From positions 21,080,001 through 21,144,000 of the forward strand of contig OZ076416.1 in assembly GCA_964187785.1 (NCBI GenBank): a stretch of 64,000 nt of DNA. Reading direction: 5' to 3'. The notes under the pieces are model-generated. The model ran no database searches, had not been told where the DNA came from, and saw nothing but the letters and a program-made list of their open reading frames with translations. Position numbers and translations under genes: made by a program. Below are positions 8,737-33,781 of this stretch, piece after piece (the first letter of the stretch is position 1; every line of letters starts with the position of its first letter). The stretch comes from Amphiscolops sp. MND2022 (taxonomy: Eukaryota).

Positions 8737-10399
8737 GAGGATCCAACCATCAATGGAACCTTCCTTGGATCCTCTATAGACGCTGGCTTAGCTTGCGTTT
8801 GGTCACGTCCAGCCAGCAGAGGGGCCAGTTCCTTGGACATTGCCTTTGAAATGGCGGCTGTGAATCGCAGCTGTTCTGGGGATATCACTTCCTCTCCCTC
8901 ACTAGGGGCTGGAGAAATGTCTTGACTGCCTCTAGTGGCTTGCACAGATAGTTCACCATTCGTGTTATCTTTCTGGCGAGTACTGCTGGCGCAAGGCTTG
9001 CCTGTGAGCATTCCTTCGCTCGCGGTCAAGAACAGTGATTTGGTCCCAGCAGTTTTTATCCTGACGGTTGCGTAGGCTTCATCCTCTGTGCTGCTAGTGC
9101 GTGAGCCAGCAGTTGCTCTGGTGTCAGTCAAGTCAAAGGTCGACGATGTGATCGGCATTGGGTCTACTCCCTGATCCCTGGTTCGGGTCAGCGACGTCAT
9201 CGGTGGCGTTGGTGCATCATCACTGAGTACGTTGGGCGTGCACACGTGCACTTTTGTGGCTTTCTTGTTTATCGGTGGTGGTATGACTACTTTGGGCTGC
9301 GTTTTAGGGCTTGTTTTCAGTGTTATTGACGGGTTGGGGGTGCGCATAGGCAACATCTTAATCGTGGACTCAATAGGTTCGGCAACTTCAGTTTGCTTTA
9401 CCTCTGGAGTTCTTGTGTGAGATACAGCTCCACTTTGAGTACGAATCTGGTCACTGAGTTCAGCAAATTGTGCTTCCACGCCGAGTTCGCGCTGGAGGAA
9501 TAAGTCCTTCATCTCCTCCAGACGATAGCCCATAGCGTCCACTTTCGCAGCTTACACTGTGGTCTGCTGGGTCGAGCTCCTCAAGCTACCTTTTACGGAG
9601 TCCTGCAGGGCTTCCAATTCTGCAGTCATGACCTCGTGCTGTTCATTGCATTCGGCACGAGTGTCGGCCAGACGTGCTAGGGCTCGTTGGGCTTCAACTT
9701 CCACTTGCAACATTGCAGTCCGTGCGGCAGCGGCTTCCTCGACAGCCCGATAGGCCGAGGACCTTCGAGATGAAGTAGTGGACACGGTACCGTCACGAGC
9801 TAGTTCATCTTGCACACACACTGTTGGAGGGCGCGTTCTTTGCTTGCCGGAGGTTTTCGCTCGACAAGCCTCCAGACGATACTTTGCATAGTTCATCCCA
9901 CCGACATAAGTCATGCCTTCCAAGATTGCATCAGTATCTTTACTAGCTGGGCTGTCGTTGTTCTTGGGTGTTCCTGAGCACCCAGCGCGCACAGGGGAGG
10001 GGTCACCTCCACTGCCGTTTGGTTGGAGTTGGACCACAATCCAGCCGTCTGAGGCGATGTCAACTCGCCTCTCTTGTCTTGGATCCAGTGTCCTGTGCGG
10101 ATTAGTTCTTCCGATAGGGGTGAGTTTAGGGCCATAGCATTCTGATCTTCCCGCCGTTGCTGATCAACAGTAACACAGTCACTCATTGCTTCTGGAAAAG
10201 AGGAACCAGTCGATAATGACTTTGTTGGTGGCCATTCTCTCAGACTCACCTGACTTATAGTATCTGAGCTTTCACGTTGGGTCGAGCTTATCTCTTGCAG
10301 TTCGCTCGAATCGGTAGCGTCAGACGCATTGGGTTCGCTACCTTCCTCCGTGGTATGCGTGAACAGCCGGACTACGGTTGCTCCACCCACCCAAAACAT
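8733..10399 (-). pseudogene. N-terminal gag-side ORF segments of the same Gypsy element
   Basis: Three adjacent co-oriented ORFs (8733-9542, 9552-10037, 9911-10399), Ser/Thr/Pro-rich and coiled-coil-like, separated by single stops or frameshifts. Confidence 0.6.
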
Positions 10400-10584
10400 G
10401 ATGCTTCACATGTTGATCTAAGATACGTCACAAGTCGATTCACCAGTATCCCCAGCTTCGAGTCACTGGGCCGTACTGCCGTTCGCCCGTACCTACCCCT
10501 CGAAGCGTTGCCGGTGTGACAAGCGTCCAACCTGACTATGAGCTGTCCTGAGGTCACCCAATCCGTTCCCAGAGGCCACTAAAG

Positions 10585-13904: not shown

Positions 13905-14134
13905 TAGCTGGGATGAGTCTAGCTCAATTGGACGACCGCTCAACTAACCGACTGATCAATTGGAAGACTATCAGCTGTTTCTAAAATAATATTGGTTGAT
14001 TCATCTTCGCTGACAGACTCCGATTACGTAATCATTACAAGTTGTGAGCGGAACTGAAAATGGAATGCGTGCAGAATCGATCAATTGCACAGTCGTCTAA
14101 CTGAGCGATCGTCCAATTGAACGGCTCCCAGCTG
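13905..14134. mobile_element. MITE-like foldback element
   Basis: AGCTGGGA...TCAATTGGACGAYCGCTCA...CGACTG at ~13906-13955 is an imperfect inverted repeat of ~14087-14133. No TSD found. Confidence 0.5.
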
Positions 14135-14240
14135 GGATACCTGTACGTAACGAATTGCGTCACGCACTAAGATGAATCAAGGTCCATTTCAGCAGAATGG
14201 TACAGTTTTTGAAGGAGGAAATGTAGTCCCCGTAATAAAA

Positions 14241-14277
14241 CACGTCAACTTTACGACGCATATCCCTACACTTTTTG
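14241..14277 (+). repeat. left terminal inverted repeat
   Basis: CACGTCAACT then TTACGACGCATATCCCTACACTTTTTG (14251-14277). Confidence 0.75.
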
Positions 14278-14319
14278 AAAACTGCGGAATTGACGGCTAA
14301 CCGCAGGTAGCACCTACCA

Positions 14320-14700
14320 GACCTGGAATCCGCTGTTTAAAATGACGGATTTCAAAGACACACTTTATAACATGTGCAGCGGATTCCGCTTGCGATTTTT
14401 TCTGGATTCCGGGGACAAATCTCTTTACATTGAATTTTTGGTGGAATTCAGAGGCATATATTATTATATTAGACAACAGTGGATTCCGCAGTCGCTGTAC
14501 CGGAATCCGGGGTCACATAATAATACACAGCATAAAAACAGCGGATTCCAAGGACAAGCTTTCGTAATGTAGAGAAAAAAACAGTGGAATCCACTGCTGC
14601 GACAGCGGATTCCGCAACAGCACCAGTGGATTCCGCTGTTGTGCAAGCGAATTCCGCAGTTTTTGACAGCTGCTGTTTTTAACAGTGGATTCCACTGCAA
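14320..14700. repeat. left subterminal array of CAGCGGA(A/T)TCCGCTG-type palindromes
   Basis: About ten degenerate copies, e.g. CAGCGGATTCCGCT at 14377-14390. Confidence 0.85.
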
Positions 14701-15627
14701 GATATCGCGAAATATGTACCACACCTTGTTTATTCAGCACTTACAATATTTATGTTTTAGGACCATTTGTATTCCTTCTGGTTCATCGCCCATCAGCACA
14801 CATCAAGGACACTTCAATGAATGACACACATAATTTGGATTTGGCCTATTTAAATGTTTTAATTAATTAATTATTTCAAACTTAAAAATTTTTAGTTCAA
14901 TCAAATTTAGTCAATTTGTTCAATCTGCATATCAAACCTGGTTCAGCATATGTCAATTAATCTAGTGATTTGAAGAACTTGTAAATTAATATTTAATAAT
15001 ATTAATTATAGTATTGATTTGTAAAAATGTTATCATCACTTCATAATTTGTGCTAAATTTTTGTAACAATTAGATTGCGTGTTGTAATTAAGTTTTTATA
15101 TGCTTATTTTATCAATGAAGAAAAGCGCCAATTTTAGTCAAAATTCAGTTGTCAAAATTGCATTTTGTCCGAACTTTGTAAAACAAGTTACCACTCTTCT
15201 CTGTGTTTAAGAGAATGCACTGCTTGTATTGATTTGTAAGAACGTCATCAATATTAACTTCAGAAGTCAACTTAGGTCAGAAGTTTTGATAGCTCAAGAC
15301 TTTTTTTACCAGTTTAACGAATAAAACAAACCTTGTCTGAAAATAACATTGTTCAAAATAAGGACTGTGGAAATACTTTACACTATATCTAAAATTGATT
15401 GTCGTAAATTAAGTAAAGGTTTTAAAAAAAATGTTTAAAAAAGGAACTATTCCTTGTTATTAATTATTAATTCTTATTATAAATGATCTATTAATTAAAT
15501 TTATCAGTCAGCTAATTCGTTTTGATAATCATGAGTGATAATTGTATTTGAAGATTTTAGAGTTTCAGAGAGAATTAATCATAGTCATCAATATTGACTT
15601 CATAATTTGTGCTAAATTAATGTGTCG

Positions 15628-15641
15628 GTAACTATAGCAAC
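15628..15641. promoter_or_regulatory. RFX X-box-like motif in a promoter-like patch
   Basis: GTAACTATAGCAAC, with TCACGTGA at ~15712 nearby. Confidence 0.35.
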
Positions 15642-18250
15642 GCGCCGACCGTCATAAATGGGCTGGCGCCAATCTCACTCTTCTCTGTGTTTGAGAGAAC
15701 GAGGCATTGGTCACGTGACTGAAATTGTTCGATTACAGAGTAAAATAAACAAACCGTTTTGTCAGTGTGTGATTAGTTACTGCCAATACAAGTTGTTGAC
15801 CAGCCTGCTCCTTTCTTGAAATCTTAGTTGAAACCTGCTCCTATTGAATACCTTTCTTGAAATCTTGATTGAAATTCATAATCCCAATCCGATTTGTCTT
15901 AGTTTTAAATTAGATGAAGAATTCTCGAAGTCTTCTTACTAATCTTCTTCCTATTCAGTCTTCTTTTGATTCTAAATCAAGGTAAGTAACATTTATAATC
16001 CTCAACCTAATTGTCAAGATTATTTGAGAGAATCTCTGTATAAGATAAAAAAATATACTATATATGTATATATAAATATTTATACAATATATTATATTTA
16101 GTAAATATAAATAAAATATAATATATAAATATATAACGAGACCGGGCTCATTTAAGGGAGTCTCTGTATTTAGGATAATTATTTGTCTCTGTATTTATCT
16201 CAAAAAAGAAATTAAAACGAGTAGGTTTTAGCTGAACGGACACTTGACTAGGTTACTGAAAGATCCAAAATAGAATGTATAAAATGGCAGTTCTACAAGC
16301 AAAAAGTTATTCGGTAAAAAGTTCTTGGGCTGTCTTATCGCCGTAATCGAAACGTAGTTGCTCGAAGGGTTCTATCTGTCGTCTGGCCTTCATTACTGCG
16401 ACTCTCAGAGGGGGATCTGTATGGTCCAAGAGGATGCTAGCAGACTTCATGTTGGCTTCTCTGTTATCAGCGTTGTTTCTTCTCTGGGTCGCGTGGTTGG
16501 CTAAACGACCCATACCTAAACGTCATAAATAAATTGTAGAGATTGTTATTCTTACAACTCTAAGGATAAAACATCATTATTATTATTACATAAATTCGTT
16601 GGATGATCCACACAAATCTCGGAACTGGCATCTATAAGTCGCTTTGGTGGACCTGCTACTTCCATGACAAACTCGCTCGTAACGTCGGGTTGCTGCACGT
16701 ACTCCTCGAATTTCTGGCCGGTAATGACTTTCCCGTGGTAGTCTACAATTATTGTGTCTTTCTCCAGTTTTCCTAGACTGACAATGCCTCGACCAAATTT
16801 AGTGAAATGGGCATCGCAAATCCACTCCCACTTTTGGTTGTCAATTCGGTCTTTCAAATTTATCTGGTTTTCGTATGACAACCTGTCTCCTTTGCAGATG
16901 ATGAGATTGAACTGCGGCCTGCATATACTGGTCCGTGATGATGTGCTCTTCATCTATTCAAAACACAAAGCATCCAAACTCAATGATTTTTTCTAATAAC
17001 TATCGATCACTTAGCATGGGGCAGCTCCAGACAGGCCAAACACTCTTTTAGCTGCTTACCCTATGGTACCAAAACAAACTATTTTTTTGCCGCATTTGAT
17101 TTTCGATTTGTGCCATTGGGAAATTTTATCGTAATCTAATGCACTGCAATCTAAAGTACTCGAACGTGACGTAACCCAACCTAACCTGTTTTATAGCTAT
17201 AGTCATCGTTTTCTTGATGTCACATTTGTCCCAGCCCATCCTCGCATAAAAGGTGTTCAGGCGCTGCTCCAAATCACTGCAATTTGACAGTAACCATCCA
17301 TTGTTCTTGATCCAATGTTGCGCTCTAATTGTTTGCCGATGGTACCGTAATTGGTCAAGTCTGTGCTTCACCGCCTTGGAAACCTCTTTGTGGGTATAAT
17401 TTTCTGTCTGACTTTTCACCTAAAAAAGAATTTCCATTCCTTGGTTGAAAGCATAAGTTTAGAAAGGAAAGTCAATATTTTATTACCAAACGAAAAAGAA
17501 CAAAACCTGATTGATTACTTGCTTCTGTTTGCCAATGGTGAAACCTGGATCGCTTCGAAACGGCAGAAAACTCGCAACATGTCTCTCTAGGGTGGTCTCT
17601 TGAGGGTTATCGATGTGCTGCTGAAGCTAAAAGACGCAAACTTCGGTAAAAAGATTGAGAACATGCAGGATTTACTGCGAAAAAATTCGTGACGTAGATT
17701 CAATAAATCAAATCGGTCTCGCAATTAAAATTTCCATGAATTTGAAATAATTGTAAAACGAGTGGTGACCCTGGAAACATTTGAAGCAATTTAGGTGTTT
17801 CTGGGTTGAAATTTAAGTTTTTACCGTGTCTTTGAATTGGTCGCATAGTTGGCGCACTTTGAAATGTGTTGAGCCATTGGAATTGACGAAAAAGCGGTGA
17901 GTTCTCACTGTTCTTTTGTCATCTGCGAAAACCCTGTTGAAATTATCAAGACCTTCTTTTGGCAGGAATGCGGTCTTGCCTCCAGGTAGTATGTTTTCAA
18001 ACCGTCCACTAGCCATCGGGGAACAGTGTGCGACGATCTTATCGGAGAAAATTCAGCAGGCTCAACATAGATTGTGATTCATGCATCAACTGCTGTTTCA
18101 TTGTCTGTGTTCTCTTGCAAGGAAACGATGGCCTGTGTAACAGCATGCACTGTCAGCTCTATGATACCTTTGTCCATCATTGGTGGTGCTGCATGCTTTG
18201 ACAGGAAACACGCCAAAGCACGAAAGAGCATTGTTCTTTCCTTTTGTGTC

Positions 18251-18350
18251 AGAGCTTCCGTTTTCTTGTACTGCTCTACAATGTCCTTGATGGCTATCTC
18301 AGAGCTTCCGTTTTCTTGTACTGCTCTACAATGTCCTTGATGGCTATCTC
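18251..18350. repeat. exact 50-bp tandem duplication in a SET-gene exon
   Basis: 18251-18300 equals 18301-18350; shifts the reading frame. Confidence 0.97.
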
Positions 18351-18699
18351 AAGTTCTTCTTCAGTCGTCTCGCCACAAGTAGCCCTGACAGAAGTCTTCG
18401 ATATTTTCTAGATATTTTGAATACAAATTTCAAAAACAACTTCAAATGTTAGAATGAAAGTCAAATAATACTCAACAAGTTCAATTACAAATTCAAATGA
18501 AAATTCTTTTCCAAATTCAAACACAAAATGAATTTTAAAATTTAGGAAACACGAAGTTGTTTCTCAAAATTTTCGCTTATTTTATACGATCGTGCAAACA
18601 CTGTGAGGTGTGTGACACGTTCCGTCTTTTCTTGAAAGTGAAAGCTGAAAAAAAAAATAAAAATCCGTCACCGCTCAGCCAAGGCGGTAGCTGGAAATT

Positions 18700-18860
18700 T
18701 TCCTGGAGTATGGTACAGGAAACTGAAATCATAATGTATTAGGATTTGTCTGCGGATTCCGCTGTACATGTGTTAACCTTTGCCCCTAAATTCCGCAATG
18801 CTCTTTTGGAAGTCAATGATATGAAACATAAGACAGCGGATTCCGCTGCTATGATGAATA
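18700..18860 (+). repeat. diverged partial copy of the 218-bp unit in SET-gene intron 1
   Basis: GGTACAGGAAA...CTGCGGATTCCGCTGTACATG...CCTAAATTCCGCA matches the 24.6-25.1 kb unit. Confidence 0.8.
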
Positions 18861-19959
18861 AAACTTTTTTCGTGCTCTATGTGGTTCTAGAAGGTGATAA
18901 TCTCCCGCTTCAGTTTAAAATTTTCACTTGAAATTCAAAAACTGACCTCCGGAATATCATTTGTTGCAGAGCTAGCTGCTCTTTTACGACTTTCTTCAAG
19001 TTGCTCAGTCGACGAAGCTTCAAGCGGAGGAAGAAAAAGGTCCGGCGAATGTTCAGGTGGTGGAAGAAATTCACCAAACATGGTCGGAGGAAGTTCGTGC
19101 GAAATTCCATCTATGTTGAGCCATTGCGATTGATTCCAATCAAAATAAGACGGGTGTGAGTATTGGCGAACTACAGCCGGGCTCTTTCCGGTGGGGGTTG
19201 TCAAATATTCATGCGATCGTGAGAGAGGGGTTAATGTTGGAACTGGAGGATGAGGTAGCGTAAGTGAAAACGTCTCGGGTTGCACTGGCGTTGAAGTAAC
19301 TAGTTGAGGCGATTGAAGTTCTGTCAAATTTCCAAGATCTTCTAATGGTTGTGATTGAATTTGATGCGTTTGCAGAGACATTGTAGGTTCCTTCGAGGAA
19401 TAGAACGATGTACAATTCAAATTGACTGATTTCTAGTAGATCAAACTTATATAATGAATAGTATTATGATATTACTCTACTGAAACTGCTAATTACTTAA
19501 CTGATGATTGCCATCATAGTAATTTAACACTTCCACTTTCACAAATTAATAAAAGCCTCATCAGACGCAGCCAATGGAAATAATTGTAATTATATAATTA
19601 TAATGAGTATAATTTTATAATTATTTCTATTATAATTTTTGGCAGCGCCTGATGTGGTTCTTAATCATGTGGAAGTGTTAAAACCACACCTCATCTATCA
19701 TTTGACTTGAATCATCAGCACTTGTTCTCATTGTTCGTTCATTGGCCCGAAAGAATGCCCAAGTTTTCATCAGGACTTGAAAGATGAATGCGTAAAACAC
19801 ATGTATCTCGGATTGGACGGCTGAGACTTACGGCATGATAAAACCCTATCTAAAATAATAATATACAATCTATGTAACACACTCTAGAACAACATGGAGC
19901 ACCAAACGATTTTTTTCTTATAACAACAAACTGTTTTATACTCCATAATATTGCCTCCC

Positions 19960-20460
19960 AAAGAACCGCAGGGATACCTCGAGAAAATATCCAAATGAGC
20001 CTAGTAGCATAAAACAGTTGATTCCGTGGTTAGCGAGAGTGTTGCGCCTCATAACAGCGGAACCCGCTGTTTTGTATTCCAGATTGATGCCTTCCAAAAT
20101 CGCAGTGCGGAATTTAAGGACAAATGTTAATACATGTACAGCGGAATCCACAGGCAAATGTTAATACATTGCAATTTCAGTTTCCTGTACCATACCTCGA
20201 GAAAATATCCAAATGAGCCTAGTAGCATAAAACAGTGGATTCCGTGGTTAGCGAGAGTGTTGCGCCTCATAACAGCGGAACCCGCTGTTTTGTATTCCAG
20301 ATTGATGCCTTCCAAAATCGCAGTGCGGAATTTAGGGACCAATGTTAATACATGTACAGCGGAATCCGCAGGCAAATGTTAATACATTGCGATTTCAATT
20401 TCCTGTACCAGACCTTAAGAAAATATCCAAATCTGCTCAGTAGCATGAAACTGTGTATAG
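19960..20460 (-). repeat. tandem array of 218-bp units containing the palindrome
   Basis: CTCGAGAAAATATCCAAATGAGCC at ~19978 and ~20196; inverted relative to the 24.6-25.2 kb array. Confidence 0.92.
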
Positions 20461-21136
20461 GAATTTTAGTTTTTTTAAACCCTCTCTTGAAATTGCATTT
20501 TGGGACCAGTAATCTCAAATTTCCCAGGATGAAATCCTAATTAGCTAGAAGTCAAGTAGAATCTATAAGAATCTATCAGTGCATATATGTCTGTAATTGT
20601 CTTATAAGCGCCTATAAAAGTGCCTAAAATCGTCTACTGAAGCATTTGTGATCCGTTCCTCCAATGTGGCTAGGGAGTCGTCGCAGGGTACTTGGGAGCA
20701 GTCGCTCATTCCGAAACCCAGAGAAATGTCATTTAGAGTTTAAAACTTTCATATAACGAGAATACAGTATGCTAAGGCGCAGTTGGTGCAGTGAGGTCAA
20801 ATCGAATAAAGTAAATATCACGTAACGTTGCTTCAGTAACAGTTTCAGTAACGTTAGACATTTGTGATTGCAACATCTGCCGTACTAACTTGTGCATTGT
20901 GTCATGATTGCCTGTATGACTGATGCATATCTCTGAAAGTAGGAAAAGTAACAGCACGCGCGGCATGTAAGACTGATGCTTACCTCTGGATTTAGGAAAA
21001 GTATCTGTAATCTCTTAAAAACTAAGATCAAATGCTATTGAAGTAATTATTTTCCAACCTCTGCAATTATGACCTTGAATGTGAGAAATTGTATTAGGCC
21101 TAAAAATTTAACTGTTTGAAGGTTCTCTTCTGAAAT

Positions 21137-24100
21137 ATGCCCCAATTTCAATGCCCCACGTGCCAACTAACCCTCTCAAATAAGGGTAATCTGACCCGGC
21201 ACATCAACCAGAGTTGCGGTAAGAGAGAACAGACGCGCGGCACAAGAATGAAGTGCATGTTTTGTGGCTCTCCTACAGATGGCTCATTCTTCAAGGACGT
21301 GCAGCAGACTGCTGATCATGTGCTGACACTCCGATGCTGGAATGCTCGAAATGCCCTAACAGCGGAAGATCGAGCCAAATTACTGGAGCCCACACTGGAA
21401 AACTTTGTTCTCGTAAGAGACACCTACCCGGGCTGCAAGAAGGCCTTCTCGGCAGAAGGGAGGACGAGGAAGTTCTTCGATCAACCGCCACCGTCTAAGT
21501 TGGTTAAACGAGAAGTCCAAGTCCGAGAAGCCAGTGCGACATCGATTTCATCACCGTGGTGGGAGGTAATTCAATCAAACAAATAAATTTAATAAAAACG
21601 TAGCTTATGAGCATGAATAAGAATTAAGTCAACGGTTCTGTTTGATTTTGAATGAATGACATTTTTGAGTTCAAATGATTAATTTTTGAACAGGTTCCGG
21701 AAAGCAGCAGTCCTGTGGAGCCTGAGCATGCAGGTGTTGTTTCCTCCTCTTCCACCCTCCATTTTGCAACAGAGGCGGAAGAATATATTGCGGAAGAGTC
21801 TGTTGTTCTTCTTGAGGAGAAGCAAGAAGAAGAGGCAATCGCTTCCATGGTACTTTTGGAAGCCTTCAAGGTTGCAGAAGTCAACCACATTCAAGTTCAA
21901 GAGCCTAAATGTGTATGTATTTTTTTGAGTGACTGTTTCATGTTTCATGTAATATTTTTCAGGATGTGTAGTTTTTATGGAATTCTAGTTTTAAAAGCAT
22001 AATGGTTTGGAGGGATTTAAACTTCTAAAACCGATAATGCTTTAGGAAAAGTGGCAACAGAAACGACGACGTTTGCACAAGAATGTATCACGAATGCCAG
22101 TGACACTTCCAAACCTGAGCAGATGTACGCTTACCATGCGAAGGATGAACATGACGAACACGAACCTCATGAAATCGTTCGCTAGCATCTGGGAACTGCG
22201 TGACCTTATGAGTCAAGTAAGAACTTCCCTGGATTTGAGAATGAGATCTCTTCTCAGGATCTTAGAATGCAATTTCTTCTCCTCCAGACTCTAGATCTAA
22301 TCGGTTTTGAGTCTCTGGATTCAGGAATAAGATCTCTTCTTTAGACTTAAATCTCTGGTTTTAAGAATAAGATCTTTTCTCTAGATATAAATCTCTGGGT
22401 TGACGAGTAAGGTTTTGTCTTCTGTGTAATGTAAATTGGAGTAAATTTAGATTCCAAATGCTACCTCGATGCGGCGTGACATTACAGCAGAAGAAGTCAC
22501 ACCAGAACTGCTGTCAGACCCGGCTTTTTTGGACGGGGAGTATGTCTTCGTCATCTGTGACGGTTTGGCCATCCCCGGCTTCAACACGAAGCTAACCAGA
22601 GAGAAGATGAGCCGAATGTCGTCTGTTCAACAGATGATGCAGGGGTACAGTGGCAACCCCGTAACACTTCGTTATTTGACGACGAAGTTCGAGGTTAGCA
22701 GAGTCAATGTAACTGCTAAAAGAGATACAAACATCAATTTTGTTCTCTGTTATAAATTTGAGAATACATGTACCTGACCTGATATTTATTATTTAGGAAG
22801 GGAAGAAAGTTGTGCCAGGTAACAGAGTTACCGAGATGATGGAGAGTGACCCCCCCAAATTTTTCAACGTCATCGATGCCGAGGCAAACAAGTGCCCAGG
22901 AGCCTCATTCAAGAAGCCTAGCTTTCTAGACGAGGTTTCCCTTGGGCATATGAACTGGGAACAGACACCTGCAGCATTGCGTCCAGTGCGTGAATCGAAT
23001 TATTTGCTGATTTCACAAAGTGGCGCAATCACGGGGTTCCACCAGGATTTTTCATCCACAAGTGTGCTGTATTATCTGGCCAAAGGTTGGTACCAGGTTT
23101 TAGTACAAGTAAAATGAAAATCGTGTTTTTTTTTCAAAATAAGTCAAGTGTTTGGTGGCTGACGGACTATTGTTACAGGGGTTAAAGCTTTCCATGTTGT
23201 GAGGCCCACTGCCAGAAACGTTGACTTGTTCAAGGCGTTCAAGAATCTCCCCAGGCAAGTAAAATTGTTTATACTTACACTACACAGTGCTTTTCTCTCT
23301 GTTATGCATGTAAGACTGATAACCGGGAAAAATTTATTACTGTTATTGATTGTTTAGAAGGGACCTCTTTTTTGGCACCCATGAAGAGCTTGACATGGGC
23401 GGCTGCACAAAAGTCATTCACTTCGAGGGACAGGCGCTGATTCTTCCTGCGAAGATGATCCACGCTGTGGAGACTTTCGGCATGTCAGTTGCTCTGGGAG
23501 TCAACTTCATTCACCGCCTGCACGTGAAGAAAGCTGCCGAAGAGTTCTCTGAAGAGCGGTGCCGACATGACCCCTACGACGAATGTTATCCCCACCTTCC
23601 CCGACTTTTGTTCACGCACATTGCGAGTTTGATGAGGTACATTATTTATTTTATTAGTTATAATATCACTTTTCATGATACATGTAGTTTTGTATATAGT
23701 CTGTTTGAAATAATTATGAAACAATCATATTCCTAAACACAGAGGTTGCATAGTTGTACTATCACTTTTCATGATACGAGTAGTTTTGTATAAAGTCTGT
23801 TTGAAATATTTATGAAACAATCAGATTCCTAAACACAGAGGTTGCTGTATTTTAGTTCTTCTGCATCCGTGGACAAGCTTGAGAAGGCACAGCTGCTCAA
23901 CGCTGCTATGATTGTGCAGAAGACGAATTGTCACACTGTTGAAAATTCCATTGACACCGTTTGCCAGAAAGTATGTAATTTTCATGCAAACTTTCATATT
24001 ACTTTTTGACTTTGTCTAGCTAGAAGGTCTTTGCTTTTTGTTTTTGTTTTTTTTTTGTTTTTTGCTTGTCGGTGAAACAAAATATGTGTTTCTATTTATT

Positions 24101-24434
24101 ACGGAGGAATTTTGTTTCTAGTATGGAGTTACATCTGCATTAATTGTGCAGAAGACGAATTGTCAAACTGTCGAAATTTCCATTGACACCGTTTGCCAGA
24201 AAGTATGTAATTTTCTTGCAAACTTTCATAATACTTTTTGACTTTGCCTGACTAGAAGTTTTTTGTTTTTGTTTTTTGCCTTTTGCTTGTCGATGAAACA
24301 AAAAATGTGTTTTTCTATTCATTACGGAGGAATTTTGTTTCTAGTATGGAGTTACATTCGAACAGATGACAAGCTGGCTTTCCTGTGACATCGCAGTGCC
24401 TTCGGGGTCCTACGGGACTTCCCATCAAGGATGA
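21137..24434 (+). CDS. C2H2 zinc finger plus JmjC domain protein (KDM2/KDM7-like), 9 exons, ~629 aa, apparently intact
   Basis: Exons 21137-21565, 21694-21912, 22046-22216, 22451-22693, 22797-23085, 23179-23254, 23358-23636, 23856-23970, 24366-24434 join in frame (1890 nt). CPTC...HINQSC finger; YLLISQSGAITGFHQDFSSTSVLYYLAKGVKAF, LILPAKMIHAV, GVNFIH parallel the KDM2/7 core; HxD at 23040-23048, distal H at 23461. Confidence 0.9.
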
Positions 24435-24579
24435 TCCTGATGAGAACTATTTATTAACTTTTCAAATTTTTTAATTTTACTGATTTTTATTGAACATACA
24501 TTAGATAGAGAATTGATGATTTTAGTATAATTTTATGAATTTCTCAGCTATTAGGCTGCTAGATTTCAAACTGCTAGGT

Positions 24580-25190
24580 AGATTTGGATATTTTCCCAAG
24601 GTATGGTACAGGAAATTGAAGTCGCAATGTATTAGCATTCGTCTGCGGATTCCGCTGTACATGTATTAACATTGGTCCCTAAATTCCGCACTGCGATTTT
24701 GGAAGGCATCAATCTGGAATACAAAACAGCGGGTTCCGCTGTTATGAGGCGCAACACCCTCGCTAACCACGGAATCCACTGTTTTATGCTACTAGGCTCA
24801 TTTGGATATTTTCTCGAGGTATGGTACAGGAAACCGAAATCGCAATGTATTAACATTTGCCTGTGGATTCCGCTGTACATGTCTTATTATTGGTCCCTAA
24901 ATTCCGCACTGCGATTTTGGAAGGCATCAATCTGGAATACAAAACAGCGGGTTCCGCTGTTATGAGGCGCAACACTCTCGCTAACCACGGACTCCACTGT
25001 TTTATGCTACTAGGCCTATTTGGATATTTTCTTGAGGTATGGTACAGGAAACCGAAATCGCAATGTATTAACATTTGCCTGTGGATTCCGCTGTACATGT
25101 ATTAATATTGGTCCCTAAATTCCGCACTGCGATTTTGGAAGACAATAATTGTGAAGCGCAACACTCGCTAACAGCGGAATTCACTGTTTA
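24580..25190 (+). repeat. tandem array of 218-bp units, inverted partner of 19960-20460
   Basis: GGATTCCGCTGTACATG recurs at ~24647, ~24865 and ~25083. Confidence 0.92.
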
Positions 25191-25403
25191 ATGCTCCAAT
25201 TGTTTCCGACTAGCAAAAACCGACTTCTCCTATATCAAATACTCAGAAAGACTATGATTTTGCCCTCAACAACTTTTCAAGATGAACGACATAAGTTTGT
25301 ACGTGAACAACTCAATTGAACAGAACAAAAGAACAAAATATACAGAAATGTTGTGAAAACGAACATAAACACAACTAACAAAAAGAAACCTACGAAATTA
25401 GGT

Positions 25404-28400
25404 TCATGTTGATACTGTTTCCTCAGTATCTGCTGCTTTTTCCTCATCGATCTTTCTTTTGTTTCTGTGGCTCTTCAGGGCTGAGATAGCAGAAACTTTT
25501 TGACCTTGTTCACTGCACTGCCTCGCTAACAAAGGGCGCACATCTTTAACTTGCAATTTCTTGACATTTGGTCCGGGTAACATTTCGTACTTTTTCGGAT
25601 CCAGGATGCGATCTGATTCCAACGAGTCAAGTACAAACGAAAAGTGAATGAATTTCCAATCTCCTCCAGCAAATTTGCGACATAAAAGTCCTGTTGGAGT
25701 TGCCGCATTTTCCGATACAGACTTCTTTGGCACGTCCATCAACTCTTTATCGTTCGTTGATTCTTTGACAACATCCGTCGACTTCCTCAACTCTTTTTCG
25801 TCCTTCATAACGACAAAGCAGTTTGGACAAGTTGAGTGCGAAAATAACAATGTTTCAGCACTTGCTTTGGTGCAAACTGTTCCGCCCATCTCTGCTATCG
25901 CATTTTGGATATCTTCATTTTTCATTGAACCAAAGTTACCCACTACAAAAAAGTACAATCCCAAAAATCGGTGTTTCTTGTTCCGTGTCTCACCGACAGC
26001 AATCGAAGCGCACGAAACAGGCTGCAGGCAAATATCATTGTAAGTCTTCGATTCTTCGTCAGCTTGATTGACGATCCCACCAATTCCTCGGGCTTTCGAT
26101 AACAAATCGTTAATTGAAACTTGTTTTGCTTTGAGGGTTTGTTTCCTGAATAGCTTCAGCAAGGAAAATTGAAGCTCGAAAAAAAGGGGGTCTTGGGTTG
26201 ACTGCTTTCCTCCGCCTCTCATCGTCTTGCTCTGGAATGCTTTGTTTGCATTATGGTTAGACTTCTCCAAACCCTCGCACATATGATTCCAAGGAGTTAT
26301 AATATGTCCGCTTTCAATTAGTTGTGGATAAAGTAGCATCTTCAGCTTGTAAGGCGTAAGTCCTTTATCTTTGCCAAAAAGTAACATTGAGACTTGGTAA
26401 TACGTCTCTGCCCACTTGGTGAAACTTGTAATGTCAAGACCGGTCCGTGAACTGCGCAAAAGAATAGTGCACATGTTAAGGCTTTCCCTCATGAGCTCAG
26501 CTGCATCTGAAATAGAAATTCTTCTTCTTCTTTCCATACACCTTCGAATAAATTTGTCATGTCTGGAATCATATCAGAAAACTCGTCTTTGTTGGCAATT
26601 GCTGTAAGTGCTCCCGAACAAGAAAGTGACACCGCACCGACAGTCTTCACCTTCTGTCCAGATTTGGTAGTCGTATCGAACTGGAAGTGCGGTTTCTTCA
26701 CATCTCGTTTGGTCAGATTTTCTTCCAAACGCGCAAGTGACTCCTTCTCTTTGGGATGCTTGTCATCAACAAGCTTCTGTGCAATTTTTTTAAGGTCATT
26801 TTCGACACATCTTGTTATCATGTGCGTTACATCAGGGCAAACGCATCGTATGTCGTCGTAGCTTACGAGAGACGTCGCAGGTAGATCAGTGCGGAAAGGA
26901 ACTGGAACTTGGCTTCTGTATCCAGATTTTGGATTGACTGTTGTAGGCAGAAACGTGTCGTCCGATCCCAGAAACAGTGGCATGAGTGACGGGAAATCTG
27001 AGCTGCGATCGTTTGAGATTCCAAGAATTAACCTAAATGTAAGAAAAAATTTGACATCTTGTAGGCTCAGGAAGTTCTCAAATTACATTACAGCAAAAAA
27101 AATTACAAAGACATAACAGCAGGAGAATAAACAGAAAGAATCTCTCTTAAATCCAGAGTTTTTGAATCAGGCTGCAACCATGTATGATGCTCCCAGTAGT
27201 TTGTAGCAAAACATTTTGCAGCTACAGTGGCATGAAATAATTTGACAAAACTCTATAGGACTGTCCATCGTTCAGTTTTAAATTGAAGCGGTATCAAATG
27301 TTGCTCACCTGAGTAGGAACGGGTTGTCTCCGCTATAAGTCAATTTGACGCCGAGTTCTCTCAACGCAACAGTCTGCTTGAACAGCCACCCGGATGTTTG
27401 GTCCCCAACTTTTTCGTATCCCACATTTTGCTCTAAAGCAAACCTGCTGTCGTTGCCTCGGTACGCAGCAAAACAGAAGACACTGTCAGATGATTGCACA
27501 CTTATTTCCTCACAGATCAATCTGAACGCCAGTCTTGTTACTTCTGTTCCTCCAATTGCGGCACCATCTCCCCAGATATCAACTTTTAGTCCCGAGATGT
27601 TTGTAGTTTGAAGGATTGCGTATGCAGCAAGTTTGACACATCGAACAACATCCACTCGGAATCCACTGAAAGTTCTTTCCGGATTGCAGAGTTTAATGAA
27701 ATGTTGGGTGAATTTGGCATTGGACGTGACAATCGTACGAATTGAGGGTACCAAGTTAAAGCCCAGGCCAGGAGCTGACAATCGAGAACGAATCAGGTTG
27801 ATCACGTCATTTACGTTACCAGTCTTCGTATGAATTGCCAATGCGTCGCGAAAGTCAGAACAACTACCCCTGTCTATGAACAAGCCAGCACTAAGGCCCC
27901 CTATGATGTTCTTTTGCTTCTTGGACGCTCCATTACGCCTCTTCCTTTGTTCAGCTTCTCTGTGTGCTGCTTCAGTCAACCCACGAATACTAATCCCTTT
28001 GTACCTGATGCACCAAATCACTTGTCTCCAAAAGCTCTTCAAGTTCAACTTTTTCCCGGCTTTACACACATCCTGAGCATTTTTACGTAAAGAAAGTTTC
28101 GGCCTGCTCTTAATTCGGTTAGCTGGTTTGATGGATCCGCCAGATGAGCCAGAGGAAACGGGCATACACGAGTTGTTAGGGGCAGGAGCATTGAAGGGGA
28201 CGACGTTTGGGACAGATGCTTTGAATGGGACGTTGTTTGGTACAGACGCATTGATGGGGACGTTGTTTGGGAAAGATACATTGTAAGGGTCAACATCAGG
28301 AATAAGCTCTCGGGAAAAAAAGAAGGAGACAAAATCTTTCCTGACTTGGTTCCATGTGTGATCTCTCAATCCGCAAACTATGATAAGTTTCATTATTTTT

Positions 28401-28810
28401 GCAGCTACGTAGACTGCTTCACGTCCTCCTTTTTTGGCTTTGACTCTTCTGACCAAAGCTTCTGGATCTCGATCCAGCGAAGTACCAGTAACAATTTGTT
28501 TGACGGCTGTAAGCATATTACGATACCTGTTCTTGGAATTTATTTCCGCAAGAAATATCTTCTCTAGAATGTCGCTGTTGATAAACTGCCTATTGCATTC
28601 GACAATCAACAAGTGTTGATGACATAAGTCTTGTATGTAATTTGATCCTTCCATTGCAGGATGAAGATGAAAATCAAATGAGAATGGAGAGGTTAATATC
28701 ACCTTATATGTTCGCAAATCAACTCTAATACTGCGTTTAGTGTTATTTGACGCTTTTTCAATTAATTTGACGTTTTTTGAAATGATTTGACGCTTTCCAA
28801 AGGGTGTCAT
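25404..28810 (-). CDS. RAG1/Transib/Chapaev-like DDE transposase with C-terminal BRCT-like domain; one intron, one frameshift (~1043 aa if repaired)
   Basis: Intron 27033-27308 (AG|GTGAG...TTTAG, phase 2). D in IWGDG (27566-27568), D in YSGDNPFLLR-LILG (27326-27328), CPDVTHMITRCVE, TPY, E in EGLEKSNH (26265-26267). A single missing base near 26520 separates ORFs 26489-26983 and 25404-26537. Confidence 0.82.
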
Positions 28811-28955
28811 AATGCGTCTCTAACCGATAGACGGGTGTCAGTTTAGCACCTCGCTTTTACTAAAAGTTTTACTGGTAGTCAGTCGTTGTAATCATTATAC
28901 AGTTGTCGAGTTACTCTACCTGTTTACCTTCCTTACCTGAATAATATTTTCCAGT
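28811..28955. promoter_or_regulatory. 145-bp divergent intergenic region between transposase and Tudor-like gene
   Basis: Two ATGs face away from each other (28810 minus, 28956 plus). Confidence 0.5.
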
Positions 28956-30503
28956 ATGTCTACGCCCGCGGAAATTTTTCGTCCAAACGAAATGGTTCAT
29001 GTTATTGACGAGAGTATATCTAGGTGGACAAAGGCTAAAATTATTGGCATCGTTAGCGACTGGTCTGTTAAAATAAAATGGATAGGCTACACTTCAATCT
29101 ATCCTTCAGAAACTATTGAGGTACCCGAGGAAAAGCGTACAGATCAGTCGTCATGGAACCTTCGAAAAGTTATAGAAAAGACACATTCCTCCATACTTTC
29201 CAGAGAGGACAGACGACAAACACCAAAGGCAGTACAACTCGAGTACAACCCCAAACATTGTGTTCATGACGATGAGGTGAGTGTCAGTCCAAATAATTTT
29301 TGTTTTTCGAAAATCAGTGCGGTTTAGCGACTGCGGAATCCGCTGCTGTCTAATATAATAGGCTTTGCATCCGGAATCTACTGTAAACTTAATGTAAAGA
29401 GATTTGTCCCGGGATTCCGCTGCACTTATGAAGTGTGTCTTTGAAATCCGTCATATAAAACAGCGGATTCCAGGTCCTGTAGGTCCAAAATGCTGCGAGC
29501 AGTCAACTCCGTTCTTTTCAAAAAGTGTTGGGTTATGCATGGCATCGTAATGTGACATGTACATTGTTTGATTGTATTTCTCTGGGATTAGGAGAAGAGT
29601 ATTCGGATTACCTATTAAGACTTAGTCCATGTAAGATTGTACACCTCTGGAAATAGGAGAAGTGTTATTTATTAGGTCTAATTTTTTATTTCTGCGCTAA
29701 TTAGGATTCAGTCCATGTAAGATTTGTAAACTCTGCAATTAGGCATTTTTGAAAGGATCTCTGCATTTAGATTTAACCTTTTTTTCTAGGTAGACTTCTT
29801 AGACGAATCGGAAGACGTTGCCGTTGTGAAGCATGGACGAATACTACTTAATGATCTGTTCCTACAACAAATGATGGTTTCCGTAGAAGGCGAAATGCCC
29901 CGATACGTTTCGTACAGCGTACTACGGAACCCAGTCCAACAAGTTAGTGCCATCGTCCCGAAAGTAGAAGACGACGATGACGACGATGACGACTCGATGC
30001 CTCGTCCGCCGGCTCCAAAAAAGCCCCGCTCTCAGAAGGAGAAGCCCTTAGAGATTGACATGATCAATTTAATCCCCGTGCTTCCAGACGGGGACACCAG
30101 GACAAGCGTGCCATTGACTTGCGCTCCGTGCACAAACGGCATTCTTTTTAAAGGGACCAAGGCATTAGATCGAGGAGGATACATTTGCACAATTGAAATG
30201 CTAGAGTACGTCATTTCAAGGAAGAAAGCATTTGTCAGTTTATCATGGGATGAAAATGCGGACTTCACTAGCAGAATTCCAGCGTCTTCAGTAAGGCTCC
30301 CGGAAGAGAATTACACAACATTGGACCCCGTGAATCTAGACAGCATGGTTTGTCCTATTGATGGAACATATGCTGTATTTTCTGCCATCAAGCGGGCCAT
30401 AGGTCTGTATCGAAAAAAAACATTCTGCGAGTTTCAATGTGTGCCCCGCAACAACTTTCACCAGGCGATGTGTTGGATTCGAAGCAGATTCAGCTCGGGA
30501 TAA
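28956..30503 (+). CDS. Tudor/chromo-barrel-like repeat protein, 2 exons (~344 aa)
   Basis: Exon 28956-29276 (GAG|GTGAGT) joins 29790-30503 (TTCTAG|GTA) in phase 0. FRPNEMVHVIDESISRWTKAKIIGIVSDWSVKIKWIGY fits a Royal-family barrel pattern; acidic/basic linker DDDDDDDD...PKKPR. Confidence 0.6.
29325..29560 (-). repeat. inverted copy of the element's left end inside the Tudor-gene intron
   Basis: Reverse complement aligns with ~14245-14500 (CCTGGAATCCGCTGTTT..ATGACGGATTTCAAAGACACACTT...GGACAAATCTCTTTACATT...TATTATATTAGACA). Confidence 0.9.
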
Positions 30504-30756
30504 TGTACGTATTTCAAAATAAAATTGGTCAATTAGGAGGATCATTAAGTAATTGTTAACTAAGAGCACTGAAACAATCCAAGATGATCGTTTTTTGAGT
30601 TCTTGTTATTGTTTAGGTCAGATTTGCTGCTCATATTGAAACTGGACTCAAATTGAAAACAAAATTGGTCAATTAAGAAAATCATTAAGTATTTGTTAAC
30701 TAAGAGCAATGAAACAATACAAGATGATAGTTTTTTGAGTTCATGTTAATGTTTAG

Positions 30757-31023
30757 GTCAGGTTTGCTGCTCATATTGAAACTGGACTTCGCGGATGTCA
30801 TCGCTCGTGGGACTCACTCTTTGGAGAGCGGTGGGACATTTTGCCAGGAGACGGAGAAGAGTCGCTGGACACCCTCATCAGAGCAATCCGATTCTCTGAG
30901 ACCCAAGACTTTCTCTTCCGAACCATTAAGGTGCAGATAAACTCTTGTGAAGGTCGCTTCCGAAACGAAGAAAAATATCGGGAAATCCTCAATATCAACT
31001 CTAAACACAATGAGGGACTCTAA
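30757..31023 (+). other. probable further exon of the Tudor-like gene, or an orphan exon
   Basis: TTTAG acceptor, then open frame VRFAAHIETGLRGCHRSWDSLFGERW...NEGL*. The preceding exon ends in TAA just before a GTACGT donor-like site. Confidence 0.4.
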
Positions 31024-31089
31024 ATTTGTATTGTGTGTATTATTTATTGTATGCTAGCATCAAATAATAAATCAAGTTTAGAATCAAGA

Positions 31090-31830
31090 TCATCTATCCT
31101 AATCCCAGAGAAAATAGTAGAGTACATGTAGTTTTAGTAGCATGTAGGCCAATAATACATAATGGAGACAGTAATTTCAATCTCAGAGACAATAGTTGTA
31201 TACATGTATTATTAATAGCATGTAGGCGTATTATACATAATCCTAATCCCAGAGGCAATAGTAGCTTACATGTATTATTAATAGCATGTAGGCCTATTAT
31301 AAATACATAATGGAAACAGTACTCCTAATCCAACAGGCATTAATAGATTACATTCATGCCTATAATACATCAGGGAGACACAATTATCTTAAACACAGAA
31401 ACTGTATACACCCTGTAGAGGTTTCAGACAATGTATATTAATTAGTCGGCTTTTATTTTATAGTTGTATTGTCTCATTGATGCTCGTTTATTAATACCTG
31501 CCAATTTAGTGCAGATGAAGAATTGTTCACCGAAAAGAGAGTACAAAATAGTTAGAGTAAAGTTTGAATTCAACGAAATCGTTTCTTATCATAGAACTAG
31601 ATTACAACACAATCAATTAAACACAAAATACAGTAGTAGATTACGAGCAATACAGAATTATGATACTTTAATTTATCTCAGTAATCTTAATCCCAGAGAC
31701 TATAGTAGAATACATAATGGAGACAGTAATCCTAATCCCAGAGACAACAGTGGATTCCATACATGAAGGCCTATAATACATCAAGGAGGCTTGTTTATCC
31801 TAAACCCAGAAACTGTATACGCCCTATTAA
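31090..31830. repeat. degenerate minisatellite with CTAATCCCAGAG cores
   Basis: Repeated (C/T)TAATCCCAGAGA...TACATGTA...GCATGTAGGC segments; inverted relatives at ~29580-29710. Confidence 0.7.
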
Positions 31831-31879
31831 ACACAATAATAAGTGTATACAGCAAGCTTTATACTAGCCCGCACTCGTC

Positions 31880-32235
31880 TGCGGATTCCGCTGTCATACA
31901 ACTTGAAGCAGATGTCACGCAGAGCTGTCAGTGGATTCCGCTTCACAAAACAAACATTTTAATACTTGCTTGCATTAGTCTACGGAATCCGCTGTCACTG
32001 CCCCGGATTCCGCTGGTACTGGTCCGGATTCCGCTGTCACTCCCCCGGAATCCGCTGTAAGCAGCGGATTCCACGATTTCGAACTGACCAATGCAGCGGA
32101 TTCCGCGATTTTGCCATATCGTCAACTGAAATCGCGAGAAAATATACACTGCGGTATTAGTCCCTGAATTCCACGCGGCGAATTCCGCTCTTTGCGGTTG
32201 GCATGTTTTAAAGCTTGGCCCAGGATTCCACTGCT
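31880..32235. repeat. right subterminal array of the same palindrome
   Basis: About ten copies of (C)GGATTCCGCTG / GGAATCCGCTG immediately inside the right TIR. Confidence 0.85.
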
Positions 32236-32259
32236 CAAGCGGCTCAACTTTGAGCTGCA

Positions 32260-32297
32260 CAAAAAGTGTAGGGTTATGCGTCGTAATGAAGCTTGTG
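32260..32297 (-). repeat. right terminal inverted repeat
   Basis: Reverse complement reads CACAAGCTTCA then TTACGACGCATAACCCTACACTTTTTG; one mismatch to the left core. Confidence 0.75.
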
Positions 32298-33781
32298 GGT
32301 CCACTTATCTGTCAAACAAGTTTATATGAGATATGTGAAACGCATCCCTCTTTGACAGGTCCTGTCTGTATTTTTCTTGCATAAAAGTCACTGAACACTT
32401 TTTGAGCTGATATCCCAGTTCGGATCTACTATGCACCAGGAAGTTTCCAAAACAGTGTTTCTCGAAAAACTAATGACGACGGCTGGTATAACTTTGTCAT
32501 TAACCTCACTAGTAAACGTTGAAACTGGGACGACCAGTGACTTCACTCAATTCAAGAACGCCAGCGGAACCTATCAACGTAAATTAGTAAACTAACCACT
32601 AAAACGCCAAGTCACAAGCAAACTACCAGGGAAATTGTGAGAAAAACTCCATAAAAAATGAATGCCTCTGTTCCAAAAATTTATCACTTGCTGCCCTAAT
32701 CCAGTCCTTTGCACTACTGCTATTTGATGCATCGAAGCGACTTTGAATAAGATTGCCTCAATCTTTACGCGCAAAACATTTCCATCAGCAAGCTGATAAA
32801 CATCAAGTGGCTATTTTGCCCCCTGCTGAAAGCCCTGTCCCGAGAATTGCAAAGGACGAAAATCATGAAAGCCACGGCGGAGAACCCGAAAAGCAAACTG
32901 GCAGGCTAAAATAACGTCAAACTTGTGCGAAAAAAGACTCAATCAGCCGAGTGCTAATTATGCCAAAGACAGATCTCAAACTGAAAAGGGTAACCTTCTT
33001 TAACATGATGCTACTAATTGTTATAAATGCCCAAAACGAATCTTTCTGCTTGAATAGGCCTTGAATGAATCTTTCTGATTGTTTCCCTTCTCTTATCGTC
33101 GTGCAAAGTCAATAATGTTGTAAAACGTTGTATTTTCTTGATGTCTTAGCTACTGTATGAGCTACTTATTCTTACCTTCCTGTGATCTAATTGAAAAATT
33201 CACCGTTGACACCACCACCTACGTTTTTAAGAGCTATCTAAGCGGTGATCCTGAGAGAAGAAACGCAATATGCCCGTTGCTGATAGCAATTACAGACTGG
33301 AACAGGTCGGCAAATACTCCTTAGAGGCCGAATCATCTCCTGACGGGACAAGTTTTGCTTCAGGAGGACTTGCGGACTTGTGAGAACTTCAAAATGGAAT
33401 TGTGGCCATCGGCGCCTGTCCCGGGCAAATACCCATATCATGAGTTCCTCCATGTTCAGAGACTACGGAAGCTACGGCTACTGCTTGGCGTTACATCGCA
33501 TAGGCGATCGTACTCAGCTCTTTGTAGTCATTGTTATTGATGATCGATGGTGAAAAGAATACCTTGACTTTCCAGGAAACTGAAGAGGAACAATTTCATT
33601 TTATTCGTTTTGAAACTGACATTTGTTCTATACTTTGCGTTTGGTTTTTAGTCGGGGCTTTTCGTAGAAAACGCAGAATATAGCAGTGACTTTTCTTTTT
33701 TTAAGACCAACGAACTGACAGATTTTATAAGCTTTATAAGCTGACTTGCACTAACACTAAACTGTGCCACACTACTTCTAC

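Follow-up and report, generated by a model that had tools for sequence, protein, structure and literature searches.

A KDM2/7-type JmjC gene in a putative 18-kb DNA transposon of Amphiscolops sp.: a candidate element-encoded anti-silencing demethylase

Introduction

Little is settled about the means by which multi-gene DNA transposons that contain spliceosomal introns withstand silencing through histones, the published cases found being those of DNA demethylation (VANC and TET/JBP), SET-domain writers, or viruses. The question is posed by a 64,000-nt stretch of DNA from Amphiscolops sp. MND2022 (contig OZ076416.1, positions 21,080,001 to 21,144,000; hereafter the window, in which all positions are counted), where one locus of approximately 18 kb, most likely a cut-and-paste DNA transposon, harbours a JmjC-domain gene on the plus strand (21137..24434). 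An initial annotation had depicted an intact JmjC gene in a decaying element, and the depiction was largely upheld: the transposase, a SET-domain gene, and a fourth gene (gene D) each appear to be broken while the JmjC frame is open. It is somewhat favoured here that the gene encodes an anti-silencing demethylase and serves as an accessory gene of the transposon. The observed basis for this reading consists of its position within matching ends, its catalytic and pocket residues, its multi-copy sisters, and a selection-like pattern of substitution. With a KDM2/7 family that is carried by a transposon and keeps its active site, the question would become open to experiment on a single recombinant enzyme and a single multi-copy element.

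Catalytic core and kinship of the JmjC protein

The full metal-binding triad and the conserved T, K, and N positions ascribed to the predicted protein are all present, as H436-x-D438...H511, T433, K453, and N525. When the family profile was searched against solved structures, KDM2/7 chains only were returned (14 of 14 matches at E<=0.01, each of them KDM2A, PHF8, KDM7A, PHF2, or a worm homologue), with PHF8 at the top (4e-33). Profiles were needed for this placement, as single exons gave weak KDM2/7 matches among solved structures (E 0.0025-0.03) and no JmjC match in Pfam. Counted along the alignments, the equivalents of the PHF8 iron ligands H247, D249, and H319 are all kept, N378, T433, Y446, and K453 of the model correspond to N189, T244, Y257, and K264 of PHF8 (co-substrate), and I380, F439, and N525 to I191, F250, and N333 (pocket); the roles of these iron, 2-oxoglutarate, and pocket residues are described in PMC9516565, which, like the other publications below, is cited for the parts of its text that were available. 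PHF8 acts on mono- and dimethylated H3K9 and H3K27 and on monomethylated H4K20, and makes use of an N-terminal PHD (PMC3479184).

No such reader was encountered in the predicted protein: PHD, CXXC, F-box, and leucine-rich repeat (LRR) domains gave no Pfam match in the open reading frames (ORFs) of exons 1, 2, 4, 5, and 7, and inspection of exons 3, 6, 8, and 9 by eye disclosed no PHD- or CXXC-like Cys/His pattern. The proposal that a C2H2 finger had replaced the PHD/CXXC of the host proteins consequently stands in its negative half, the finger itself being a single C2HC rather than a C2H2. Judged from these residues, the enzyme is most likely a lysine demethylase dependent on Fe(II) and 2-oxoglutarate, with an ancient origin in a PHF8-like host KDM2/7 protein and subsequent loss of the reader.

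Family members, sister copies, and selection

The JmjC family comprises 44 relatives obtained by profile search from 1067 candidates of 13-326 amino acids. Conservation of the key positions among them is high for H436 (35 of 37), D438 (36 of 37), H511 (30 of 30), and T433 (35 of 38), with K453 kept in 29 of 35 and N525 in 11 of 13; the six misses at K453 seem to reflect sequences that run on beyond the donor of exon 5, and P0171 and P0172 have lost iron ligands. Several of the relatives break off at shared positions, apparently by continuing into intron sequence, and the relatives thus appear to be spliced eukaryotic genes. A search for JmjC relatives in bacterial and archaeal genomes gave 70 pattern matches with none confirmed.

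The gene also has close kin beyond the window. Other contigs carry nearly identical stretches of exons 5 and 7, in clusters of 11, 6, and 18 members, and twelve sister fragments match one or other of these exons, eleven of them at 76-97% identity and some representing 6-18 sequences. The identity of the window protein to most distant lineages is 41-58%. A second, intron-poor JmjC lineage was also observed in multiple copies (P0154, P0159, P0163, P0165, P0174, P0175, P0182, and P0183), including a 78-member cluster and frameshifted variants. In a tree restricted to family members, this lineage is nearest to the window protein, without strong support.

Whether the gene is under selection was approached through the sisters by a permutation test over 159 columns. 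For exon 5, five of seven rows entered the test, and for exon 7 all five did; P0185 and P0186 were excluded as frameshifted. Variants shared among sisters fall in poorly conserved columns (13 columns, mean 0.415 versus 0.647, p=0.0005), and singleton variants show a weak, non-significant lean in that direction (26 columns, mean 0.587, p=0.11). As the shared changes avoid conserved columns and the private ones do not do so significantly, selection on the mobile lineage is suggested; such is the pattern expected of a gene that is selected during transposition and neutral after insertion. Were the gene passive cargo, being either a captured piece of a host gene in neutral decay or a single domesticated host gene in a dead element, this avoidance of conserved sites would be hard to accommodate, as would the depth of the family, its distance from canonical KDM2/7, the retention of the active site in several multi-copy lineages, and the multi-copy sisters, which argue against a single domesticated locus. 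In its favour, the window copy carries a private F556L change at an otherwise invariant column, and an unbroken frame of 1.9 kb is within chance expectation, with a probability of 0.23-0.41 given 3-5 lesions in some 6.4 kb of the other genes, so that the intact frame says little about this particular copy. Passive cargo is regarded as very unlikely; the window copy is a dead insertion, the JmjC frame of which has not yet been hit.

Gene model and the attachment of the finger

The nine exons of the model were found, in a three-frame reading with splicing by coordinates, to join as had been claimed into an open frame of 1890 nt from the ATG at 21137 to the TGA at 24434, with only the terminal stop. 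Exon 1 (21137..21565) encodes the finger (amino acids 6-27) and a second Cys/His cluster (41-67); exon 2 (21694..21912) is acidic and of low complexity, with a weak donor (rank 38 of 71 GT sites); exon 3 (22046..22216) supplies a basic linker, KRRRLHK, behind a weak acceptor (rank 12 of 67) and has no homologue support; and exon 4 (22451..22693) carries a pre-JmjC segment common to family members P0153, P0164, P0168, and P0170. N378, I380, T433, H436 (23040-23042), D438, F439, and Y446 lie in exon 5 (22797..23085), K453 in exon 6 (23179..23254), which ends in a GC donor, and H511 (23461-23463), N525, and the private change at residue 556 in exon 7 (23358..23636). The start of exon 8 (23856..23970) is colinear with P0167, and exon 9 (24345..24434) runs to the TGA; its upstream in-phase acceptor at 24345 yields 1911 nt and the alternative at 24366 the 1890 nt given above. 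An optional in-frame cassette exon (24122..24202) arises from a 232-bp duplication (23903-24134 and 24135-24366). All of these exons are on the plus strand. The GC content of the exons is 46-53%, and the introns are 65-75% AT.

Seven introns are GT-AG and intron 6 is GC-AG (CAG|GCAAGT), with a donor score of 11.0 versus 5.1 for the nearby GT site. The latter was rejected, a stop being reached with either acceptor 23358 or 23361, and the other open GT options would alter the spacing that homologues keep; the GC donor alone matches the spacing of P0001. Junctions 4/5, 5/6, 6/7, and 7/8 are supported by ungapped alignments of P0154 (over model residues 344-566) and P0167 (over model residues 360-596) and are colinear with intron-poor relatives; junctions 1/2, 2/3, 3/4, and 8/9 depend on splice signals. 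The best-scoring donor and the best-scoring acceptor of the region are those of intron 1. Intron 2 combines its weak donor with a stronger rival acceptor at 21962, which would lead to a stop at residue 218 through a 50-nt intron.

The splicing of the finger to the JmjC domain is the point at which the gene model is weakest. It is conceivable, if doubtful, that exons 1 and 2 form a separate finger and acidic protein of 218 amino acids, stopping just after acceptor 21962, and that exon 3 or its vicinity holds the start of the JmjC gene. The rank of that acceptor (2 of 67, versus 12 of 67 for 22045), the poor rank of the exon 2 donor, and a second open frame of equal length in exon 3 all speak for such a split, and so, weakly, does the failure to find a full-length homologue with a finger among 7118 long candidates of 561-2000 amino acids, the profile searches having left out lengths of 327-560. 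Conversely, a 50-nt intron would fall below both the 93-218 nt of the introns backed by homology and the 75 nt of the last SET intron, the fused model is in phase at all eight junctions, several relatives seem to begin where exon 4 does, an indication of further exons upstream, and the matrix from which the ranks derive was trained on just 12 donors and 10 acceptors. The finger and the JmjC domain are accordingly predicted, with a fair degree of probability, to be fused in one protein; a split would concern the architecture alone and would be compatible with the anti-silencing reading.

Finger 1 reads C-x2-C-x12-H-x4-C (C2HC), without the second His of the Cys2His2 ligand set, and the second cluster of exon 1 reads C-x2-C-x17-H-x5-C, for which the Pfam scan gave no zinc-finger match; no tandem array of canonical fingers was seen, finger 1 being the only one with canonical spacing. 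As an isolated 30-amino-acid piece, finger 1 scored 26.1 bits against zf-C2H2 (PF00096), above the cut-off of 25.2, in a match to positions 1-21 of the 23-position profile, and when scanned within the whole of exon 1 it scored 21.9 bits, under the cut-off. A single-sequence AlphaFold model of exon 1 residues 1-123 was uninformative (mean predicted local distance difference test (pLDDT) score 40.7).

The carrier element and its ends

The boundaries of the element are given by a terminal pattern that occurs twice in the window in inverted orientation, at 14251 and 32286, and not once in 100 shuffles. Ends of the form CG...CG with TA on both sides are the simplest reading. The left end (14254..14720, plus strand) opens its terminal inverted repeat with CGACGCAT, preceded by TA at 14252-14253 and followed by 10 palindromes with the core GGAWTCC, and the right end (31700..32283, minus strand) holds 10 core palindromes and a terminal inverted repeat closing with ATGCGTCG, next to TA at 32284-32285. 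The TA is a 2-bp match at one locus that is not separable from the terminal repeat itself, and a 5-bp target duplication was found at none of eight end positions tried at this locus. A degenerate internal element end (29320..29550), 73% identical to the left end over 245 nt, lies in intron 1 of gene D. Between the ends, the gene order is SET (minus), JmjC (plus), transposase (minus), and gene D (plus).

The JmjC gene is flanked by two tandem arrays of a 218-bp unit. The left array (19974..20455; 2.2 units) lies upstream of it, between the divergent SET and JmjC genes, and the right array (24564..25190; about 2.7 units), inverted with respect to the left, lies between the convergent JmjC and transposase genes; together they form a 477-bp inverted repeat at 95% identity, the left arm of which is the left array. 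Over 19974-25040, units are 92-95% alike between arrays and 90-97% within them, versus approximately 80% to a lone older copy of the unit (18671..18888; ~80-82%) in SET intron 1. The JmjC segment between the arrays could be invertible or recently homogenised. It was also considered as a separate nested element, a reading that is not supported, no terminus being seen between the inverted arrays and the best flanking direct repeat being an AT-rich 8-mer, one of some 23,000 boundary pairs tried.

The palindromic core is concentrated in this locus, with 33 of the 37 GGAWTCC sites of the window inside the 18-kb element (1.6 expected) and four in the other 46 kb. Within the element there are 10 sites at each end, three in the degenerate internal end, nine in the 218-bp units, and one elsewhere. 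The arrays and ends together hold 32 of the 33, which places the motif arrays in non-coding parts of the element; the ends alone, the internal one included, hold 23. The exact 15-mer CAGCGGAWTCCGCTG occurs once in the window; tolerance of up to one mismatch gives 13 sites, and of up to two gives 26, 25 of the latter inside the element. Since most sites sit at element ends, the ordinary reading, that the palindrome binds the transposase, is the more probable one. Reading of the 15-mer by the finger itself is possible and less likely. The finger helix reads NKGNLTR, and under the recognition code an Arg at +6 and an Asn at +3 would specify GA, which is found in the motif core; this match is weak, given that one finger reads about three bases. 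Should the finger indeed target the arrays, the protein would be a natural sequence-targeted histone demethylase and, in effect, a natural sequence-directed epigenome editor.

A number of lesser features were noted in and beside the element. Local tandem duplications of 26-232 bp, mostly intronic, occur at 18249-18351, 22224-22398, 23655-23845, 23903-24366, 30516-30788, and 31091-31761; the AT-rich left part contains a short stretch bounded by AG and GTAAGT (15914-15981, plus strand), a possible exon to which no gene was assigned; and a 39-nt inverted repeat is located at 13924-14120, just left of the left end. No Rfam family was found in 14000-33000.

The transposase

The transposase gene (25404..28819, minus strand) is predicted to encode a DDE enzyme of RAG1-like fold with a C-terminal BRCT domain. 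It has one intron (27308-27033) and is broken near 26510-26540, where a frameshift near 26520 is accompanied by the loss of ~35-40 residues relative to homologues; the alternative of a 35-nt intron was dismissed, the homologues carrying about 40 more residues at that place. Its first exon has 179 relatives at E<=0.001, and sisters of the transposase are 78-91% identical. As its profile matched no solved sequence at E<=10, the placement comes from fold searches alone: for a model of the intact homologue P0007 (pLDDT 76), Foldseek returned RAG1 and Transib as top matches, concordantly with the Atlas, and the Z scores were 17.1 for RAG1 (root-mean-square deviation 4.1, 404 residues aligned), 16.5 for BbRAGL, 11.8 for HzTransib, and 11.2 for the P element, with BRCT domains also matched. 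The motifs WGDG, SGD, and E..EKSNH are present in the window pieces, where the RAG1-like catalytic D, D, and E appear, on the model, to be in place. A BRCT match was given by Pfam in 9 of 20 homologues, in addition to the fold match.

Features that define neighbouring groups were sought in the same family. Among the 16 of 26 homologue rows that span the relevant stretch, CxxC was found in one, H-x3-4-H in four at no common place, and DxxH in all 16, and no Cys/His pattern of the kind of the Chapa zinc domain of Chapaev was seen by eye in homologue N-termini. The confidently modelled N-terminal domain (P0007 residues 1-115; window 28301-28650, minus strand) we take, provisionally, to be a KilA-N/APSES-like DNA-binding domain, and an extra C-terminal segment in P0068, P0070, P0078, and P0117 is presumably HMG box-like, for which Pfam gave no match. 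With the C(2)C and H(3-4)H motifs, Transib ends, and a 5-bp duplication absent, the carrier was filed under neither Transib nor the fungal ESTA group. It falls outside the tested definitions of its nearest superfamilies and, on the modelled fold, seems to form an unclassified branch in the neighbourhood of RAG1 and Transib, which may already have a Repbase name; a carrier so placed bears on the origin of V(D)J recombination.

The matching ends, the DDE transposase, and the intron-rich genes leave little room for an endogenous virus in place of a transposon, an identity that is hardly to be expected. The suggestion draws on Amoebidium, in the viral insertions of which JmjC is the most enriched domain in genes that keep introns (PMC11244446). 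No capsid, polymerase, or packaging gene was seen among the scanned ORFs of the present element, a sub-threshold match of the transposase N-terminus to the Sputnik capsid (E 0.031) was taken as chance, and no match was found in 50,697 phage records, a search that covered phages and not eukaryotic virus contigs.

The SET gene, gene D, and the proposed mechanism

Two further genes accompany the transposase. The multi-exon SET-domain gene (16307..19381, minus strand) bears the motifs GRGI..DYHG..IDAS..RLANH..FDYG and is broken by a perfect 50-bp frameshifting duplication at 18249-18351, possibly an assembly error, with possible further lesions. Its identification is based on these motifs and on sub-threshold matches (SET E 0.079 and 0.029). 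Below the cut-off, the structural neighbours of a SET exon include SETD8/KMT5A (E 1.1-1.5, in 8 of 10 rows) and a Legionella SET protein (E 0.4-0.5), and no SET structure was among the matches of the last SET exon. Gene D (28956..31023, plus strand) has three exons, an inferred one-base slip in an A-run near 30414, and an N-terminal small barrel, the leads for which are Tudor/chromo-barrel-like, all under 0.9, and are taken as a lead only; the gene gave no Pfam or PDB match.

In active copies, the JmjC enzyme would remove PHF8-type mono- and dimethyl marks (H3K9me1/2, H3K27me1/2, and H4K20me1) from the chromatin of the element, which would keep the element promoters and ends open. A DNA-binding partner encoded by the element, be it the finger of the enzyme, the transposase, or gene D, would bring it to the 218-bp arrays, rich in palindromes, on either side of the gene. 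A fuller scheme, in which an unclassified RAG1-fold lineage with a SET8-like writer, a PHF8-like eraser recruited by its finger to the palindromic arrays, and a Tudor-like reader would program its own chromatin, is decidedly speculative and is given a low likelihood.

Several points weigh against the anti-silencing reading. The permutation test is a protein-level proxy and not a ratio of nonsynonymous to synonymous rates (dN/dS), with five rows per exon and shared variants that are not independent; the adjacency of JmjC and transposase was seen at this window alone; and activity, substrate, and recruitment are inferred. The boundaries are drawn from a single locus, by a terminal repeat of 27 nt with a flank of 2 bp, and the internal end may mean that the structure is composite. 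Furthermore, a SET methyltransferase in the same element fits the simple erasure of a silencing mark awkwardly.

The principal competing explanation assigns the SET, JmjC, barrel, and BRCT modules to the H4K20 and break-repair pathway, or to non-histone substrates such as the transposase; they would then steer the repair of excision breaks or the choice of target chromatin rather than relieve silencing. The recurrence of SETD8 among the weak neighbours of the SET exon, the retention of BRCT in the transposase family, and the Tudor-type leads in gene D are in keeping with it, as are the removal of H4K20me1 by PHF8 (PMC3479184) and the reported demethylation of TOPBP1 by PHF8 (PMC8099190). Given that the SETD8 and Tudor assignments are below significance, that the last SET exon gave no SET structure, and that nothing binds the modules to one mark, this explanation is considered unlikely, and the anti-silencing demethylase is retained as the preferred reading.

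Other elements in the window

Outside the element, a region at 4048-10405 (minus strand) is presumably a broken Gypsy-like long terminal repeat (LTR) retrotransposon, with frames that we take to be gag with a zinc knuckle, protease, reverse transcriptase, RNase H, and integrase, and two overlapping frames at 35263-36877 (plus strand) presumably encode a reverse transcriptase of the long interspersed nuclear element (LINE) type. A tandem duplication of about 3.94 kb (47448-53825; 94-97%) contains Gypsy-like pol fragments on the minus strand, and a direct repeat of about 1.6 kb (39492-41120 and 56557-58166; 86-95%, 17.05 kb spacing) is possibly an LTR pair.

Comparison with known systems

The host relatives, PHF8/KDM7B and the other KDM2/7 proteins, share with the element protein the JmjC core, the Fe triad, and the residues for 2-oxoglutarate and the pocket, as well as the N-terminal NVI strand and the post-barrel helix. 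In place of PHD, CXXC, F-box, and LRR, the element gene as modelled has a C2HC finger and an acidic linker, and its family is multi-copy and element-borne, with motifs of its own (HQDFS and FFG.H..L..GGC).

Among transposons, the VANDAL elements of Arabidopsis encode VANC, which causes loss of DNA methylation and the binding of which has been shown (PMC5735166; also PMC8616336). The likeness extends to an element-encoded accessory protein and to short motifs in tandem repeats of non-coding element parts (PMC5735166), whereas the present protein is an enzyme of the histone-demethylase type and its motif binding is putative. Fungal DNA transposons that carry TET/JBP, including ESTA with its TA duplications and RAG1 similarity, likewise bear a 2-oxoglutarate/Fe dioxygenase as cargo, the TET substrate being DNA (PMC12730594). 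The C(2)C and H(3-4)H motifs define the CMCT clade and are found in ESTA, one consensus of which starts with CAC (PMC12730594); the window transposase is without those motifs, and its element ends in CG. Transib and RAG1-like transposons share the fold of the transposase, but the window element lacks their recombination signal-like (CAC) ends, 5-bp duplication, and C(2)C or H(3-4)H zinc motifs, has an added BRCT domain, and measures 18 kb as against 3-4 kb (PMC1131882).

A further parallel is offered by the giant Plavaka elements of red algae, which encode PAG2 (SET) and PAG3 (a 2-oxoglutarate oxygenase with a DNA-binding domain) and which, at 17-19 kb with three accessory genes, combine a SET with a 2-oxoglutarate enzyme and place inverted-repeat tandem arrays beside the oxygenase gene (bioRxiv 10.1101/2025.02.11.637652). 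They differ in having an EnSpm-type transposase, in their host group, and in PAG3, which the available text of the preprint does not describe as JmjC/KDM; the same preprint cites 2-oxoglutarate oxygenases in Helitrons. HarbingerS and oomycete MuDR elements with SET genes are further cases of a histone-modifying enzyme in a DNA transposon, with a writer only and with transposases of other superfamilies (PMC12730594). Last, the KDM4-like JmjC genes of endogenous giant viruses in Amoebidium, which were proposed to counter host chromatin, are also parasite-borne, intron-bearing, and without PHD/Tudor readers, and differ in their KDM4 clade, viral carrier, and want of an added finger (PMC11244446). 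The literature searched, outside the scope of which were Repbase Reports, subscription papers, and bioRxiv supplements, yielded no account of a JmjC/KDM2/7 protein that is encoded by a DNA transposon. Element-encoded chromatin enzymes are already known, and the transposon-borne KDM2/7 JmjC protein described here is probably a new form of them.

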